A stretch of DNA of 6,277 nucleotides from IMG/VR virus record IMGVR_UViG_2690316166_000005. The stretch is one strand, 5' to 3'. The position numbers and the translations under genes are program-made. The DNA comes from a virus. Its lineage: Duplodnaviria; Heunggongvirae; Uroviricota; Caudoviricetes. Positions 1 to 6,277 of this stretch are shown here, piece by piece (positions within the stretch are counted from its first letter, which is position 1; each line of letters begins with the position of its first letter). The notes under the pieces are model-generated. The model was not told the DNA's origin. It searched no databases and saw nothing but the letters and a program-made list of their open reading frames with translations.

Positions 1-117
1 GCCATGATTCGCCATATCACAAAGGCGGAGTTATCCCGCGTGGAGATAGTCGAGCTGCTCAGTCAGGAGTCGGAAAAATTTCACAATATCGGATTGTCTC
101 GCGGGGAGGTGCTTTGA
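1..117 (+). CDS. C-terminal fragment of an upstream phage early-region ORF (hypothetical protein); 5' end lies outside the window
   Basis: Frame 1 is open from position 1 to a TGA at 115-117 (translation ...[38 protein letters not shown]). The stop overlaps the next start as TGATG (TGA 115-117, ATG 117-119), typical of translational coupling in phage operons. Too short to appear in the ORF track; product unknown. Confidence 0.35.
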
Positions 118-416
118 TGTCCTGTTCTCATTCAGTTGTATTACTGAATAACGCCTTAAAAATCGCCGTTATGAAAAATGGCGACTTGTCTCTTATTCAA
201 CTTTGTCTTGATAAAGAAAAACGCGACATCACTGAATCTGTTATCGCGATTTATCAGAATGAATTAAACCTCCTGTCTGATGTGGTCAATTTACTTGTTA
301 AACGCGCTGTATTCCACAAGCAAATTTCCTCAGTGGATGAACTGACAAAATTAACGACAGAACTTGCCAGTTATTGCGCTGATGTATCCAGGAAACTTAA
401 CGATAAAAGGAGCTGA
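117..416 (+). CDS. hypothetical small protein of the P2-like early operon (~99 aa)
   Basis: ORF track 114..416; the ATG at 117 is preferred over the TTG at 114 because a GGGGAGG Shine-Dalgarno sits ~7 nt upstream. Stop TGA 414-416. Same strand and tight spacing with flanking genes. No recognisable motif. Confidence 0.6.
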   Translation: MSCSHSVVLLNNALKIAVMKNGDLSLIQLCLDKEKRDITESVIAIYQNELNLLSDVVNLLVKRAVFHKQISSVDELTKLTTELASYCADVSRKLNDKRS

Positions 417-418
417 TA

Positions 419-643
419 ATGCCGGACAACATAGATTTTATTCAGGAACAACAGGCTGAATTACTGGAGCGCCAGATTAACGCGGCAAGGGTAAAACATT
501 GCGGTGCTTCTGCGCTGGTTTGCGAAGAGTGTGACGCGCCAATTCCTGCTGCCCGTCGTGCGGCTTATCCGTCAGCCACGCGTTGTGTTTCCTGTCAGTC
601 AGTCTTTGAAGCAAAAAACAAACATTACCGGAGAACGGCATGA
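419..643 (+). CDS. TraR/DksA-family C4-type zinc-finger protein (74 aa)
   Basis: Strong SD AAGGAG (407-412) 6 nt before ATG 419. The protein has two CxxC pairs (C-E-E-C ... C-V-S-C) about 20 residues apart near the C-terminus and a helical N-terminus, the pattern of TraR/DksA zinc fingers; such a gene is found just upstream of the replication gene in P2-like phages. Stop TGA 641-643 overlaps the next ATG (ATGA). Confidence 0.85.
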   Translation: MPDNIDFIQEQQAELLERQINAARVKHCGASALVCEECDAPIPAARRAAYPSATRCVSCQSVFEAKNKHYRRTA

Positions 644-915
644 GTATTCGTATTGAAATTGGCGAACGTTATGTCGTTACCAGTGACAGCTTCCAGTTTA
701 TTCTCCACGAGAAAAAGAGAGCGGAAAGCGGTAAAAACGCCGGTCAGGAATGGCTGGCGGTGGTTGGTTATTACCCGAAATTAAGCCAGCTCGTTTCCGG
801 CCTGATGCATCACGATATTCTGACCGGAAGCGCAAAGTCTTTTGCTGATTTAAACGCGCAGGTTGAGCAACTCAGCAAGCGTTGTTCAGAGGCTTTTGGC
901 TCATATGGCCGTTAA
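640..915 (+). CDS. hypothetical small phage protein (91 aa)
   Basis: ATG 640 overlaps the preceding stop (ATGA at 640-643), with a GGAGAA SD-like sequence upstream. Ends TAA 913-915, overlapping the start of the replication gene. No recognisable motif. Confidence 0.6.
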   Translation: MSIRIEIGERYVVTSDSFQFILHEKKRAESGKNAGQEWLAVVGYYPKLSQLVSGLMHHDILTGSAKSFADLNAQVEQLSKRCSEAFGSYGR

Positions 916-3202
916 AGCCTCCGGGCGTTTTGTCCCTCCGTCAGCATTTGCTGCAGGCACCGGTAAGGCGTTTACCGGTGCTTATGCATGGAACGCGCCA
1001 CGCGAGGCTGTCGGGCGCGAAAGACCCCTTACACGTGACGAGATGCGTCAGGTGCAAGGTGTTTTATCCACGATTAACCGCCTGCCTTACTTTTTGCGCT
1101 CGCTGTTTACGTCACGCTATGACTACATCCGGCGCAATAAAAGCCCGGTGCACGGGTTTTATTTCCTCACATCCACTTTTCAGCGTCGTTTATGGCCGCG
1201 CATTGAGCGTGTGAATCAGCGCCATGAAATGAACACCGACGCGTCGATGCTGTTTCTGGCTGAGCGTGACCACTATGCGCGCCTGCCGGGAATGAATGAC
1301 AAGGAGCTGAAAAAGTTTGCCGCCCGTATCTCATCGCAGCTTTTCATGATGTATGAGGAACTCAGCGATGCCTGGGTGGATGCGCATGGCGAAAAAGAAT
1401 CGCTGTTTACGGATGAGGCGCAGGCTCACCTCTATGGTCATGTTGCTGGCGCTGCACGTGCTTTCAATATTTCCCCTCTCTACTGGAAAAAATACCGTAA
1501 AGGACAGATGACCACGAGGCAGGCATATTCTGCCATTGCCCGTCTGTTTAACGATGAGTGGTGGATTAGTCAGCTTAAAGGCCAGCGTATGCGCTGGCAT
1601 GAGGCGTTACTGATTGCTGTCGGGGAGGTCAATAAAGACCGTTCTCCTTATGCCAGTAAACATGCCATTCGTGATGTGCGTGCACGCCGCCAGGCAAATC
1701 TGGAATTTCTTAAATCGTGTGATCTCGAAAACAGGGAAACAGGCGAGCGCATCGACCTTATCAGTAAGGTGATGGGCAGTATTTCTAATCCTGAAATTCG
1801 CCGGATGGAGCTGATGAACACCATTGCCGGTATTGAGCGTTACGCCGCCGCAGAAGGTGATGTGGGGATGTTTATCACGCTGACCGCGCCGTCAAAGTAT
1901 CACCCGACACGTCAGGTTGGAAAAGGCGAAAGTAAAACCGTCCAGCTAAATCACGGCTGGAACGATGAGGCATTTAATCCAAAGGATGCGCAGCGTTATC
2001 TCTGCCGTATCTGGAGCCTGATGCGCACGGCATTCAAGGATAATGATTTACAGGTCTACGGTTTGCGAGTCGTCGAGCCACACCACGACGGAACGCCGCA
2101 CTGGCATATGATGCTTTTTTGTAATCCACGCCAGCGTAACCAGATTATCGAAATCATGCGTCGCTACGCGCTCAAAGAGGATGGCGACGAAAGAGGAGCT
2201 GCGCGAAACCGTTTTCAGGCAAAACATCTTAATCGGGGCGGTGCTGCGGGGTATATCGCGAAATACATCTCAAAAAATATCGACGGCTATGCACTGGATG
2301 GGCAGCTCGATAACGATAGCGGCAGACCGCTGAAAGATACTGCCGCGGCTGTTACCGCATGGGCGTCAACGTGGCGCATTCCGCAATTTAAAACGGTTGG
2401 CCTGCCGACAATGGGGGCTTACCGTGAACTACGCAAATTGCCTCGCGGCGTCAGCATTGCTGATGAGTTTGACGAGCGCGTCGAGGCTGCACGCGCCGCC
2501 GCAGACAGTGGTGATTTTGCGCTGTATATCAGCGCGCAGGGTGGGGCAAATGTCCCGCGCGATTGTCAGACTGTCAGGGTCGCCCGTAGTCCGTCGGATG
2601 AAGTTAACGAGTACGAGGAAGAAGTCGAGAGAGTGGTCGGCATTTACGCGCCGCATCTCGGCGCGCGTCATATTCATATCACCAGAACGACGGACTGGCG
2701 CATTGTTCCGAAAGTGCCGGTCGTTGAGCCTTTGACTTTAAAAAGCGGCATCGCCGCGCCTCGGAGTCCTGTCAATAACTGTGGAAAGCTCACTGGTGGT
2801 GATACTTCGTTACCGGCTCCCACACCTTCTGAGCACGCCGCAGCAGTGCTTAATCTGGTAGATGACGGTGTTATCGAATGGAATGACCCGGAGGTTGTGA
2901 GGGCGCTCAGAGGTGCATTAAAACACGGACTGAGAAGACCAAACCGTCAGCAAAGAAACGGAAGCCCGTTAAAACCGCATGAAATAGCGCCATCGGCCAG
3001 ACTGACCCGGTCGGAACGAATGCAAATTACCCGTATCCGCGTTGACCTTGCTCAGAACGGTATCAGGCCGCAGCGATGGGAGCTTGAGGTGCTGGCGCGT
3101 GGGGCAACCGTAAATTATGACGGGAAAAAATTCACTTACCCGCTCGCTGATGAGTGGTCGGGATTCTCAACAGTATTAGAGTCAAACTCAGTGAAGCGTT
3201 AA
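905..3202 (+). CDS. A: rolling-circle replication initiation endonuclease, P2 gpA-like (HUH superfamily), ~765 aa from ATG 905
   Basis: Long ORF (track 863..3202, which begins at a TTG). HUH motif P-H-W-H-M-M-L-F encoded at 2099-2107. Paired catalytic tyrosines in G-Y-I-A-K-Y-I-S-K (Tyr codons 2252-2254 and 2264-2266), the same YxxKY spacing as phiX174 gpA and P2 gpA. The size (~765 aa) and the N-terminus MAVKASGRF... are consistent with my recollection of P2 gpA. Start set at ATG 905, which overlaps the upstream ORF by 11 nt; TTG 863 is an alternative. Confidence 0.9.
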   Translation: MAVKASGRFVPPSAFAAGTGKAFTGAYAWNAPREAVGRERPLTRDEMRQVQGVLSTINRLPYFLRSLFTSRYDYIRRNKSPVHGFYFLTSTFQRRLWPRIERVNQRHEMNTDASMLFLAERDHYARLPGMNDKELKKFAARISSQLFMMYEELSDAWVDAHGEKESLFTDEAQAHLYGHVAGAARAFNISPLYWKKYRKGQMTTRQAYSAIARLFNDEWWISQLKGQRMRWHEALLIAVGEVNKDRSPYASKHAIRDVRARRQANLEFLKSCDLENRETGERIDLISKVMGSISNPEIRRMELMNTIAGIERYAAAEGDVGMFITLTAPSKYHPTRQVGKGESKTVQLNHGWNDEAFNPKDAQRYLCRIWSLMRTAFKDNDLQVYGLRVVEPHHDGTPHWHMMLFCNPRQRNQIIEIMRRYALKEDGDERGAARNRFQAKHLNRGGAAGYIAKYISKNIDGYALDGQLDNDSGRPLKDTAAAVTAWASTWRIPQFKTVGLPTMGAYRELRKLPRGVSIADEFDERVEAARAAADSGDFALYISAQGGANVPRDCQTVRVARSPSDEVNEYEEEVERVVGIYAPHLGARHIHITRTTDWRIVPKVPVVEPLTLKSGIAAPRSPVNNCGKLTGGDTSLPAPTPSEHAAAVLNLVDDGVIEWNDPEVVRALRGALKHGLRRPNRQQRNGSPLKPHEIAPSARLTRSERMQITRIRVDLAQNGIRPQRWELEVLARGATVNYDGKKFTYPLADEWSGFSTVLESNSVKR
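2755..2785 (+). other. candidate rolling-circle origin (nick site) embedded in the gpA coding sequence
   Basis: In P2 the origin cleaved by gpA lies inside the 3' part of gene A. The segment GCGCCTCGGAGTCCTGTCAATAACTG here resembles my unverified recollection of the P2 ori/nick region and sits about 80% of the way through the gene. Position is inferred, not demonstrated. Confidence 0.25.
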
Positions 3203-3240
3203 CTCAATAAATATGAGTTTATAAGTTAGGCCTCGAGATT

Positions 3241-3285
3241 TTGTAGAAAGGGATGTATACTGAGTATCGTATAGATTTGGAGTGA
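3241..3285 (+). promoter_or_regulatory. putative promoter and ribosome-binding region for the methyltransferase gene
   Basis: AT-rich 83-bp intergenic spacer after the gpA stop. -10-like hexamers TATACT (3256-3261) and TATAGA (3270-3275) and a -35-like TTGTAG (3241-3246) are present, but spacing is non-canonical. SD GGAG (3279-3282) lies 6 nt upstream of ATG 3289. Confidence 0.3.
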
Positions 3286-3288
3286 GTG

Positions 3289-4311
3289 ATGACTGTAAAG
3301 GTGATAGACCTTTTTTGTGGTGCTGGCGGATTAACTCATGGTTTGCAGCTTGCGGGGCTTGATGTCGTTGCAGGCATTGACCTTGAGGGGGAATGTAGGT
3401 TTCCCTATGAAAGAAACAATAAATCTAAGTTTATTGAGCAAGATATCGCTAAAGTAACAAAAGAGGAACTGCTGAGGCTTTATGGTGATGCGTCTGTAAA
3501 AGTATTGGCAGGATGCGCACCTTGCCAACCTTTTTCAAAATATACTCAAGGAAAAGATAAGGCTGATGATAAAAAATGGCCTCTTCTTTATGAGTTCGAA
3601 CGTTTAATTCGCGAAGTATCTCCAGAAATCGTAACAATGGAGAACGTTCCTGATGTAACTAAACATAAAGTTTATAATGATTTTTATAATTCATTGTTAA
3701 AGTTGGGCTATTATGTTTGGGCGTCTAAGATTGATTGTGTCGAATATGGAATCCCACAAAACCGTTCCCGTCATGTATTGTTGGCCTCAAAATTGGGGGC
3801 GATTGAGTTAGTAAAACGTGACGATGTTATTTTGAAAACAGTTAGAGATGCAATAGGAAATCTTCCTCCATTAGAAGATGGCCAAACAGATCCAAATGAT
3901 ATATTACATAGAGCCAGTAAATTAAATCCGATTAATAAAAAAAGAATTATACACTCTGTTCCTGGTGGTACATGGAAGGACTGGCCGAAAGAGTTGGTTG
4001 CCGCTTGTCATATGAAATCCAGCGGTAAAGGGTATGCTAGTGTATATGGGCGCATGTCTTGGGATAAGCCAAGTCCAACAATTACAACTCTTTGTTATGG
4101 TTTCGGGAATGGGCGTTTTGGACATCCAGAACAGCATAGAGCGATTTCTCTTAGAGAGGCTGCTTTATTGCAAACTTTCCCGATGGATTATATTTTTGTA
4201 GAAGACAAAAACAAGTTTGTTATAAGAAGTATTGGGAAAATGATAGGTAATGCTGTTCCTGTGGAACTAGGAAAAGCAATTGGGCAATCAATCAAGAACC
4301 ATTTAGAATGA
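3289..4311 (+). CDS. DNA (cytosine-5)-methyltransferase (C5-MTase), ~340 aa
   Basis: Canonical C5-MTase motifs in the canonical order: motif I F-C-G-A-G-G (3313-3330, AdoMet binding); motif IV G-C-A-P-C-Q-P-F-S with the catalytic Cys in PCQ (3520-3528); motif VI E-N-V (3640-3648); motif VIII Q-N-R-S-R; C-terminal motif X G-N-A-V-P-V. ATG 3289 is preferred over GTG 3286 on SD spacing. Stop TGA 4309-4311. Confidence 0.9.
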   Translation: MTVKVIDLFCGAGGLTHGLQLAGLDVVAGIDLEGECRFPYERNNKSKFIEQDIAKVTKEELLRLYGDASVKVLAGCAPCQPFSKYTQGKDKADDKKWPLLYEFERLIREVSPEIVTMENVPDVTKHKVYNDFYNSLLKLGYYVWASKIDCVEYGIPQNRSRHVLLASKLGAIELVKRDDVILKTVRDAIGNLPPLEDGQTDPNDILHRASKLNPINKKRIIHSVPGGTWKDWPKELVAACHMKSSGKGYASVYGRMSWDKPSPTITTLCYGFGNGRFGHPEQHRAISLREAALLQTFPMDYIFVEDKNKFVIRSIGKMIGNAVPVELGKAIGQSIKNHLE

Positions 4312-4312
4312 T

Positions 4313-4340
4313 AAAATGGCCTGCTTTACAGGCCTTATAA
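4313..4340. terminator. putative bidirectional intrinsic terminator between convergent genes
   Basis: Perfect inverted repeat GGCCTG (4318-4323) / CAGGCC (4329-4334) with a 5-nt loop, flanked by an A-run on one side and T-rich sequence on the other. It lies exactly between the MTase stop (4311) and the HEPN gene stop (4341). The stem is short (6 bp), so strength is uncertain. Confidence 0.45.
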
Positions 4341-5021
4341 CTATTGTTCTAAATATTCATTATTATTTATATAGTGCTCTATATTATTCACGATAGCATC
4401 AAGATAGGCGATTACTTCTAATGAAATATTCTCTAAGTCCTGATATGAAACATTTTTTCCAATCTCAGCAAATGATACATTGCCATGAGATAAATCATTA
4501 CGATGTTGTTTAACAGTGGCTAATTTTTCACCATGTTTAGTGTGAGTGTAATCGGAATGTGTAGAAAAACCATATATTTTCGATTTTTCTTTGATTTCCT
4601 CTCTATCAATATTTCCTGAGAATATTTTCTTTTTGTTGAACGTGCCATAAGATATACCGCAAGATATACCTTTGGTAAGGTGATTAACTAAACTTTCAAC
4701 ATTTACAGATTCATTTTTTAATCTTTTTAATATTTCTGACCTGAGATTTTTCCTGAGTTTGTCAAATTCTACGTTTCTATCATAAATAGTCTCATGAATA
4801 AGGCAGATAGCTTCTCTCATTGTTGATTCAATGAGGTTATATAACAGTATATATACTGCTCCCTTTAGAGTTTTTCGTGATTGAGCAGTAATGGAGAACT
4901 TATGTTCTTTATCATCAGCTGATATCAGTTCTGCACCGGCATACTCAATAAATTTCAAAAGATCCAAATAGGCCAAGATCTCTCCTGACCTTTCGTCAAA
5001 ATCCTCACGAAAACGATCCAT
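4341..5021 (-). CDS. HEPN-domain protein (MAE_28990/MAE_18760-like predicted RNase), 226 aa
   Basis: ATG at 5019-5021 (- strand) with an AGAGGA SD 5 nt upstream, located inside the 3' end of the upstream gene. Only 1 nt separates the upstream TAA (5023-5025) from this ATG. Contains an Rx4H HEPN-type motif, H-R-N-D-L-S-H-G (Arg codon 4500-4502, His codon 4485-4487), near the C-terminal third of a small, predicted all-helical protein. Stop TAG 4341-4343. Confidence 0.75.
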   Translation of the reverse strand: MDRFREDFDERSGEILAYLDLLKFIEYAGAELISADDKEHKFSITAQSRKTLKGAVYILLYNLIESTMREAICLIHETIYDRNVEFDKLRKNLRSEILKRLKNESVNVESLVNHLTKGISCGISYGTFNKKKIFSGNIDREEIKEKSKIYGFSTHSDYTHTKHGEKLATVKQHRNDLSHGNVSFAEIGKNVSYQDLENISLEVIAYLDAIVNNIEHYINNNEYLEQ

Positions 5022-5022
5022 G

Positions 5023-6165
5023 TTAATCCTCTAATAATTTATCCCGAACATATTCAATTCGTTCAATTACCTTCACGCGACTATTAGCTCCGTCGGAAGT
5101 GGTCAATCGTTTGAATTCTTCTGAGCTTAGCCAATCTAAGTTCTTGGGAACAAGGTCAGGGACTTCACGTAATGCAAGTGCTGCGCCAACAGCGAGAGAT
5201 TCGAATCTAACTCGAGGTGTAGATTTTGCAGTAATAGTTTTCTTGAATCCTGCTGGGAAATAGTTTTCAACAAAAGATAGAACATTAGCAAACTCTTGTT
5301 TCATTGAGTTTTGTTTAGTTTCGTCTATATCTCGATTTTCTGACATATAGTCATTTAGAAAATCCCGTACGGAATGATCAAAGTTCTTGTACTTATCTAC
5401 GTAGGCAAAGAATCTTAATGTAAATTCTAACCGTTCATCTCGTTTTTCTTTAGTCTGAGATAAAGGTGCTAATTCTTTAAATTTAGGTATTGTTGAGCAT
5501 GGCTTAATAACCTGTGTATATAAATTTGTTGAACCAAGTTCTGATCCTTTACGGACTTCCATATCTTTCAATATATCGCTGCCAGAGTTAATACGCTCAA
5601 AAAGATCTCTACGGGTTTCTTCATTGCATTTAGAACTCAATTCTATAACGCGGACAGGAATTCTCATGAAACGACGTTGACGTGATAATGGTAAATCTTG
5701 GAATTTGAAACCATTAAGGACGTCTAAAGATTTCAGGTCTTGTAAAACTAATTCATTTTGGATAAAAGCGTGTATAGTCCTAACTCGTTGTGAGCCATCA
5801 ACAATCTCAATTCGCCCATCTAAATCGGGATCTTCGGAGAGAACATCTGCTATAAATATATATGGTATAGGAAAACCCAAAATCAAAGACTCTATCAATT
5901 TTGATTGTCTTTTTTCACTCCAAACAAAATCCCTTTGATAATCAGGAACAAAGAGTTCGTTAGTATCATCCTCTAATCCGTTATGATACTTATTAACTAA
6001 TAACTCAACGGTAAATTCTTTGGTCTCAAAATCCACATCCTTTTGCTCAGCACGAATTTGCTCTTCAGCGTTTTGCTTTATCACCTCTAGCTGAGCAAGC
6101 AACTCTGCTCTTTTCTTGGCATTATCTTCATTTTCTAGTTGAGATTTTAAATCAATAATGTCCAT
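5023..6165 (-). CDS. DUF262 (ParB-like / GmrS-like N-terminal domain) protein, ~380 aa
   Basis: ORF track 5023..6183, beginning at a TTG. ATG at 6163-6165 (- strand) is preferred because an AAGGGAA SD lies 7 nt upstream. Hallmark DUF262 motifs: V-P-D-Y-Q-R-D-F-V-W (DYQR codons 5932-5943) and I-V-D-G-S-Q-R (DGSQR codons 5785-5799, the DGQQR-type motif). No HNH/DUF1524-like motif was recognised in the C-terminal half. Confidence 0.8.
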   Translation of the reverse strand: MDIIDLKSQLENEDNAKKRAELLAQLEVIKQNAEEQIRAEQKDVDFETKEFTVELLVNKYHNGLEDDTNELFVPDYQRDFVWSEKRQSKLIESLILGFPIPYIFIADVLSEDPDLDGRIEIVDGSQRVRTIHAFIQNELVLQDLKSLDVLNGFKFQDLPLSRQRRFMRIPVRVIELSSKCNEETRRDLFERINSGSDILKDMEVRKGSELGSTNLYTQVIKPCSTIPKFKELAPLSQTKEKRDERLEFTLRFFAYVDKYKNFDHSVRDFLNDYMSENRDIDETKQNSMKQEFANVLSFVENYFPAGFKKTITAKSTPRVRFESLAVGAALALREVPDLVPKNLDWLSSEEFKRLTTSDGANSRVKVIERIEYVRDKLLED

Positions 6166-6277
6166 GTCTAGTTCCCTTAACAAGTGTTAAAAATTGAAGC
6201 GGATAGCATACCGCATAGATCATGAAAAATGCCATCATGTGCATGGTGCGTATTCCGCTCTATTCGATCACGGATTG

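Follow-up and report, generated by a model that had tools for sequence, protein, structure and literature searches.

DUF262 acts as the NTPase and modification sensor of SspE, BrxU and GmrSD (PMC10952713, PMC12065111), and PD-T4-2, Dazbog and Menshen contain a DUF262 protein devoid of DUF1524 (PMC10952713, PMC12065111). Makarova et al. reported in 2013 frequent combinations of COG1479/DUF262 with HNH, PD-(D/E)xK or HEPN domains, as well as its linkage to DNA-modification systems (PMC3632139). In the same year, Table 1 of Anantharaman et al. included a one-line entry, without experiments, whose three genes and HEPN family correspond to those of the locus described here (PMC3710099). HEPN proteins are mostly RNases (PMC3710099). 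Vassallo et al. subsequently found in 2022 that PD-T4-2 ("DUF262, HEPN") of E. coli ECOR65 protects against T4 when cloned in K-12, and deletion in the native strain also revealed protection against T4 (PMC9519451). Finally, Rousset et al. listed the triad of genes in the P2 hotspot in 2022, with a methyltransferase of accession WP_001697730 (PMC9122126, Table S5A). The same accession occurs in locus L001, which shares 98% identity with the window, i.e. the entire 6,277-nucleotide stretch of prophage DNA that we analyzed.

The preliminary description of this DNA had suggested a split between a DUF262 protein and a HEPN protein, the novelty of which was overstated; the arrangement had in fact been published, with one example validated (PMC3710099, PMC3632139, PMC9519451). 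The cassette is a PD-T4-2-like DUF262-HEPN system of the methylase-linked form that was described in 2013, and it is already catalogued. It appears only as a catalogue entry in the hotspot survey, as the term DUF262 does not occur in the table of tested systems of that paper (PMC9122126). A row for the triad itself was not found among systems 23-83 of its Table S5B. A literature search on "MAE_28990" and on DUF262 with cytosine methyltransferase returned the 2013 analysis alone, and no biochemical or genetic test of the methylase-linked DUF262-HEPN family was found in the literature.

Three cargo genes in a P2-like prophage

The window corresponds to the end of the early region in a P2-like prophage (Peduovirus). 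Over positions 1-3180, where DUF5405, TraR/DksA-like and gpA replication proteins are encoded, it shares 97-98% identity with sequenced P2-like phages. The gene coding for the P2 gpA replication endonuclease (863-3202, plus strand; Pfam Phage_GPA, E=2e-123; 97-98% DNA identity to Peduovirus up to ~3180) bounds the P2 A-Q cargo hotspot on the left and provides context, lying outside the defence cassette. A sharp break in G+C content, from ~0.52 to ~0.35, coincides with the gpA stop codon (3150-3300, ~3200), where the similarity to P2-like phages also ends, which indicates that the cargo is foreign to the P2 backbone. The interval between gpA and the portal gene is a known cargo hotspot, occupied in P2 itself by old and tin (PMC9519451). 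We found the low-GC insert between these two genes in 9 complete E. coli genomes, 8 at ~98% and one at 89% identity.

The insert consists of three genes, coding for a C5 DNA cytosine methyltransferase (3289-4311, plus strand), a HEPN protein (4341-5021, minus strand) and a DUF262 protein (5023-6165, minus strand); in L001, these are the sole genes located between gpA and the portal gene. We favour, with modest confidence and jointly with the mechanism proposed below, the reading of 3289-6165 as a defence cassette of three genes that a P2-like prophage carries in its gpA-portal cargo hotspot. A GC-rich hairpin (4318-4334), in which a terminator-like GGCCTGTAAAGCAGGCC precedes a T-run on the minus strand, separates the convergent stops, 7 nt past the methyltransferase stop and 7 nt past the HEPN stop. 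Its sequence and position suggest that it is likely a bidirectional terminator.

Similarity between the window and both L001 and L002 ends at position 6247. Its last 31 nt (6247-6277) are the end of an ISSso4-like IS21 element, ~82 bp upstream of the DUF262 start, and its last 37 nt match at 100% the sequence adjoining istB of an IS21-like ISSso4-family element. This insertion, which is not part of the cassette, may disrupt or replace the promoter of the DUF262 and HEPN genes in this strain. No convincing sigma-70 promoter was found for the DUF262-HEPN operon, whose upstream region is cut by the IS end and the window edge, and an Rfam scan and a repeat search of the window returned nothing relevant.

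The nuclease-less DUF262 protein and its HEPN partner

The DUF262 gene starts at an ATG at position 6165, and its 1143-nt model is identical in the RefSeq annotation of homologous E. coli prophages. The 380-aa product is composed of an N-terminal helix, a ParB-like DUF262 NTPase domain and a helical C-terminal domain. The DUF262/GmrSD_N domain (residues 64-212; 5530-5976, minus strand) matches PF03235 (E=8e-26), the only Pfam hit in the protein at E<=0.1, DUF1524 being absent. All three DUF262 motifs, QRxxxW, DGSQR and FxxxN, are intact (QRDFVW77, DGSQR123-127 and FERIN189) and are invariant or nearly so among 29 homologues of 58-86% identity; the nucleotide-binding motif DGSQR, located by translation at 5785-5799 on the minus strand, is invariant in all 29. 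The long N-terminal helix (residues 16-40; window 6046-6120) that precedes the DUF262 domain is confidently predicted, with conserved charged residues listed as E27, E34, R38 and Q41; dimerization and HEPN docking are possible roles for it.

An N-terminal DUF262 domain bearing DGxQR is the feature shared with GmrSD, BrxU and SspE. In contrast with these enzymes, there is no DUF1524 His-Me finger nuclease (D/EHxxP) here, the protein stops after the helical domain, and the effector is a separate HEPN protein. The absence of a fused HNH/DUF1524 nuclease, suspected from the sequence in the preliminary description, was borne out by the negative Pfam result, by the lack of any strand past residue 175 and by an all-helical model of the C-terminal domain. 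The supporting residue counts needed correction, as the stretch following DGSQR has 253 residues rather than ~200 and two histidines (H132 and H264) rather than one. Within the C-terminal domain (residues 205-380; 5026-5553, minus strand), H264 is the sole histidine, and it is ~90% conserved, some homologues having K or P in its place.

Structure prediction, which had been proposed as a check for a cryptic nuclease in the C-terminal half, revealed a helical domain instead. The AlphaFold model of the full-length protein (29-sequence alignment, pLDDT 84.5) contains zero beta-strands beyond residue 175, which excludes a beta-beta-alpha metal finger, and the model of residues 205-380 (pLDDT 92.6, pTM 0.90) is made of 11 helices. 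A fold search with the C-terminal model matched only the helical middle domains of BrxU, 9jfl (a DndI-system protein) and SspE. This result agrees with the definition of "ParBDB" given in the 2025 analysis of Menshen, i.e. a helical DNA-binding domain located between DUF262 and DUF1524 and common to NsnA, GmrSD, SspE and DndB (PMC12065111); in our protein, a domain of this type ends the polypeptide. No PD-(D/E)xK, HNH, GIY-YIG or PLD domain was detected by Pfam and fold search in either the DUF262 or the HEPN protein, the 380-aa DUF262 protein showed neither a motif nor a fold of a metal nuclease, and no solved structure was found to be sequence-related to the C-terminal domain or to the HEPN family. 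When a profile of the C-terminal domain was searched against 1.84 billion representative proteins, 979 relatives were retrieved at E<=0.001, and in all of the best 150 of these the domain constitutes the protein end (longest <=424 aa), which argues that the nuclease-less architecture is stable and is not the product of a truncation. The 2013 Table 1 entry calls the DUF262 partner a "ParB nuclease" (PMC3710099), a label to which later structures of relatives and our models give no support.

The HEPN protein (226 aa; 4341-5021, minus strand), a predicted RNase effector, belongs to the MAE_28990 family. It matches PF18737 (HEPN_MAE_28990) at E=6e-29, with a score of 102 bits against a cut-off of 26.8, and, more weakly though above the gathering score, PF18735 (HEPN_RiboL-PSP; E=8e-9). 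The catalytic motif RNDLSH (R174-H179; 4485-4502, minus strand), identified by translation, falls within an RNxLAHG consensus in 79 orthologues, with R174, N175, H179 and G180 conserved at 99%, 97%, 100% and 100%, respectively. Y61, N62, E65, G136 and N137 are also conserved in these orthologues.

The HEPN gene had been described as lying immediately downstream of the DUF262 gene, and its start is indeed one base past the DUF262 stop (TAA-C-ATG). A HEPN homologue directly follows DUF262 in 78 of the 78 loci having at least 650 nt of sequence after DUF262. The spacer between the DUF262 stop and the HEPN start does not exceed 15 nt in 73 of 77 loci (median 1 nt), and a 4-nt overlap is seen in 22. 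These short spacers and the unbroken association, together with an intact Rx4H site, identify HEPN as an obligate, translationally coupled partner. Pairwise distances of the two proteins correlate strongly (r=0.89; Mantel p=0.001, 45 loci). The DUF262 family comprises thousands of homologues with equal length and architecture, hence the DUF262-HEPN arrangement is not due to chance.

Comparison with defence models using PADLOC placed NsnA of Menshen first (1.7e-54; residues 17-380 on profile positions 25-376 of 385) and PD-T4-2_A next (2.5e-35; residues 79-378 on positions 55-356 of 363), both being full-length matches. With Menshen, the protein shares the ParB-DUF262 plus "ParBDB" build and the use of a separate predicted RNase effector (PMC12065111; Millman 2022), with the difference that the effector is here a HEPN protein. 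Membership in Menshen was considered and rejected: NsnA is the best match, yet the hotspot contains neither an NsnB (ABC ATPase, AAA_15/DUF3696) nor an NsnC (inPIN + toxin) gene. The resemblance to PD-T4-2 extends further, as both are two-gene operons found on E. coli mobile elements, in which a DUF262 protein without DUF1524 is followed by an adjacent HEPN protein, and PF18735, one of the two families matched by our HEPN protein, is the family quoted for PD-T4-2. The two nevertheless differ in that the HEPN protein of the window is larger, its 226 aa comparing with ~140-150 aa in PD-T4-2 as judged from the 1540-bp operon, and is primarily a PF18737 (MAE_28990) protein. No PADLOC model matched it even at E<=10, PD-T4-2_B included, on the assumption that the library contains that model. 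Neither the DUF262 nor the HEPN protein received an NCBIfam name. A weak match of the DUF262 protein to the PADLOC model PDLC03418 (372 positions), labelled "Type II restriction enzyme", was also recorded (E=9e-6; residues 78-261, window 5383-5934); some proteins filed as type II restriction endonucleases may be DUF262 proteins of similar size.

A conserved C5 methyltransferase and the distribution of the family

The third gene codes for a 340-aa C5 DNA cytosine methyltransferase that matches the Pfam DNA_methylase profile over its full length (PF00145, E=3e-58) as well as TIGR00675 (dcm), and it is convergent with the DUF262-HEPN operon. The preliminary account of a two-gene split holds for the pairing of a nuclease-less DUF262 protein with HEPN; it overlooked this conserved enzyme, whose presence gives the system the look of an R-M-like, modification-linked one instead of a simple Abi pair. 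The conserved third gene also distinguishes the cassette from PD-T4-2, which has none in its cloned form. With type II R-M systems, the cassette shares a linked DNA methyltransferase, but neither the DUF262 protein nor its partner is a DNA endonuclease of recognized nuclease fold as judged by Pfam and fold search.

Relatives were found in 397 of 185,579 species-representative genomes, a lower bound as the scan demanded two conserved peptide patterns, and 80 of these loci were fetched. They span Gamma- and Betaproteobacteria, Cyanobacteria, Planctomycetota, Bacteroidota, Acidobacteriota, Verrucomicrobiota and Leptospira. Among the 54 loci flanked on either side by 1.2 kb of sequence or more, 44, from many phyla, have a methyltransferase within 1.5 kb, and the neighbouring enzyme is mostly an orthologue of that of the window (47-57% identity). 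It is encoded upstream on the same strand (8-130 nt) in 25 loci, where the three genes probably form one operon, and downstream in convergent orientation, as in the window, in 26; a few loci have a divergent C5 or an N6_N4 methylase at the same position. The methyltransferase and DUF262 distances correlate (Mantel r=0.83), although part of this signal may stem from the common descent of a single mobile block and not from a functional dependence.

The complete triad is present in at least 116 of 5,426 complete E. coli genomes (~2%), always at prophage cargo sites, 9 of P2 type and 107 lambdoid. The lambdoid prophages carry a 47%-identical allele immediately behind the antiterminator Q gene and ahead of the lysis genes (L088, 3347-6208; L089, 3347-6205), and its three genes are complete in 107 of 107 matching E. 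coli genomes. A second P2-hotspot allele occurs in Peduovirus P24B2 and E. coli 181.1, with a DUF262 protein and a methyltransferase that are respectively 45% and 73% identical to those of the window, and the triad is also found in Moraxella phages Mcat24-32 (43%).

Ten of the 54 loci lack a nearby methyltransferase. Nearly all are from filamentous cyanobacteria, and six share one Microcoleus-type context; the loci devoid of an adjacent methylase include L051, L054, L058, L065, L067, L072, L078, L079 and L082. In L075, only a 73-residue methyltransferase fragment (5506-5724) persists beside intact DUF262 and HEPN genes, and in L077 the methyltransferase is 3 kb away from DUF262-HEPN. The P24B2 methyltransferase gene (L084, 1994-3041) is split by a single 1-nt indel relative to the intact allele of E. 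coli 181.1 (L086, 4002-5048), beside intact DUF262 and HEPN genes; the frameshift reflects a sequencing error or else a natural knockout tolerated by the pair. These MTase-less loci, the P24B2 frameshift and the activity of PD-T4-2 without a cloned methyltransferase suggest that the enzyme is perhaps not strictly required. On the other side, its retention across phyla, vehicles and orientations, its co-divergence with DUF262 and its substitution by other methylase classes argue that it is an integral part of the system.

A variant of the P2 hotspot (L087, 2812-7190) encodes a C5 methylase that is 76% identical at the DNA level together with IS2 and an "ATP-binding protein", without DUF262 or HEPN, which indicates that related methylases have other partners in the same hotspot. 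We also considered whether the window methyltransferase is M.EcoT38I. Table S5B of Rousset et al. prints a methyltransferase under system 40, EcoT38I (RE_SacI, HTH, DNA_methylase; type II R-M), that differs from that of the window at 3 of 340 residues. The identity is not supported, since Table S5A gives the EcoT38I loci another accession, WP_071791628 (PMC9122126), and the printed protein is most likely a cluster representative. The two methylases appear to share a protein cluster without being the same gene; their specificity is possibly shared.

Proposed mechanism and alternative explanations

The catalytic motifs are intact in all three cassette proteins, and the nuclease-less state of DUF262, the obligate DUF262-HEPN pairing, the translational coupling and the co-inheritance of the methyltransferase were all observed. 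We propose that the methyltransferase would mark resident DNA and that the DUF262 protein, combining a ParB-like NTPase with a helical DNA-binding domain and lacking a nuclease, would bind DNA and read its modification state through NTP binding or hydrolysis. Upon meeting DNA in the wrong state, it would release or activate HEPN, a putative metal-independent RNase, which would cut tRNA, mRNA or rRNA; phage growth would then halt, the infected cell probably being sacrificed. This methylation-linked module, with DUF262 as an NTP-driven DNA sensor and HEPN as an RNase effector, is the interpretation that we consider somewhat more probable than not. We infer the division of labour between marking, sensing and cleaving from the established roles of the parts; the DNA state that is sensed, a physical DUF262-HEPN complex, the RNA target and an abortive-infection outcome are likewise predictions.

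The sensor would respond either to unmethylated DNA, following an R-M logic, or to foreign hypermodified DNA, following a type IV logic. The authors of the Menshen study raised the same possibility for methylase-linked DUF262 systems (PMC12065111). The specificity of PD-T4-2 for T-even phages might suggest, by analogy, a type IV logic. More tentatively, and with clearly less confidence than for the module as a whole, the cassette could be an R-M-like system without a DNase arm, in which the NTPase reads an m5C mark and unmarked DNA switches on the HEPN RNase. Such a system would be a case of methylation-gated abortive infection, in which self is told from non-self by DNA methylation and the output is RNA cleavage.

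An explanation that we regard as rather unlikely is that the cassette comprises two separate units, a PD-T4-2-like pair sensing hypermodified phage DNA and a solitary methyltransferase serving the prophage, for instance by shielding its DNA against host restriction, or left over from an R-M system. Temperate phages often carry orphan methyltransferases, that of the window is encoded on the strand opposite to the pair, PD-T4-2 cloned without a methyltransferase still blocks T-even phages, and both the 10 MTase-less loci and the frameshifted P24B2 gene with its intact partners are compatible with such independence. However, a solitary enzyme is difficult to reconcile with an adjacency kept across phyla in two orientations, with its co-divergence with DUF262, with the replacement of the enzyme in position by other methyltransferase classes and with the 107 lambdoid and 9 P2-type copies that keep all three genes. 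Moreover, the MTase-less loci are nearly confined to filamentous cyanobacteria, in which an unlinked methyltransferase could plausibly serve.

Less probable still is a classical R-M system. The DUF262 protein would then be the DNA endonuclease acting on unmethylated DNA, and HEPN a PrrC-like back-up RNase, kept inactive by the R-M proteins and freed if restriction is neutralized. This corresponds to the 2013 reading of HEPN in R-M operons, for which the PrrC analogy was proposed along with the "ParB nuclease" label (PMC3710099), and the linkage of a methyltransferase to DUF262-HEPN as well as the weak PDLC03418 match on the DUF262 domain would favour it. Yet in GmrSD, BrxU and SspE it is the fused DUF1524 that cleaves, DUF262 being the sensor, and the 380-aa protein has neither that domain nor another recognizable metal nuclease. 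The obligate presence and translational coupling of HEPN are also more in keeping with a core subunit than with an accessory back-up. Lastly, an addiction module in which DUF262 neutralizes a HEPN RNase toxin, stabilizing the prophage without sensing of DNA modification, is very improbable: the tight coupling of the two genes, of which the second would encode the toxin, their position in prophage moron loci and the well-known partner-neutralized HEPN toxins such as HEPN-MNT and PrrC (PMC3710099; bioRxiv 10.64898/2026.02.22.705581) speak for it, but it leaves the NTPase motifs, the DNA-binding-type helical domain and the conserved methyltransferase unexplained, and the homologous PD-T4-2 pair provides phage defence.

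The combination of DUF262 and HEPN has been validated as a defence system, yet a 2025 analysis still refers to it as "largely uncharacterized" (PMC12065111). The methylase-linked form is widespread. What distinguishes it from the validated PD-T4-2 is a larger HEPN protein of another family and the conserved methylase. If the methylase does not provide a self mark, the cassette would be one further allele of a known two-gene system residing beside a phage methylase. If, on the other hand, the mark by which a nuclease-less sensor recognizes self is laid down by the methylase, and this sensor triggers an RNase, these elements would join the discrimination of R-M systems to the output of abortive infection.
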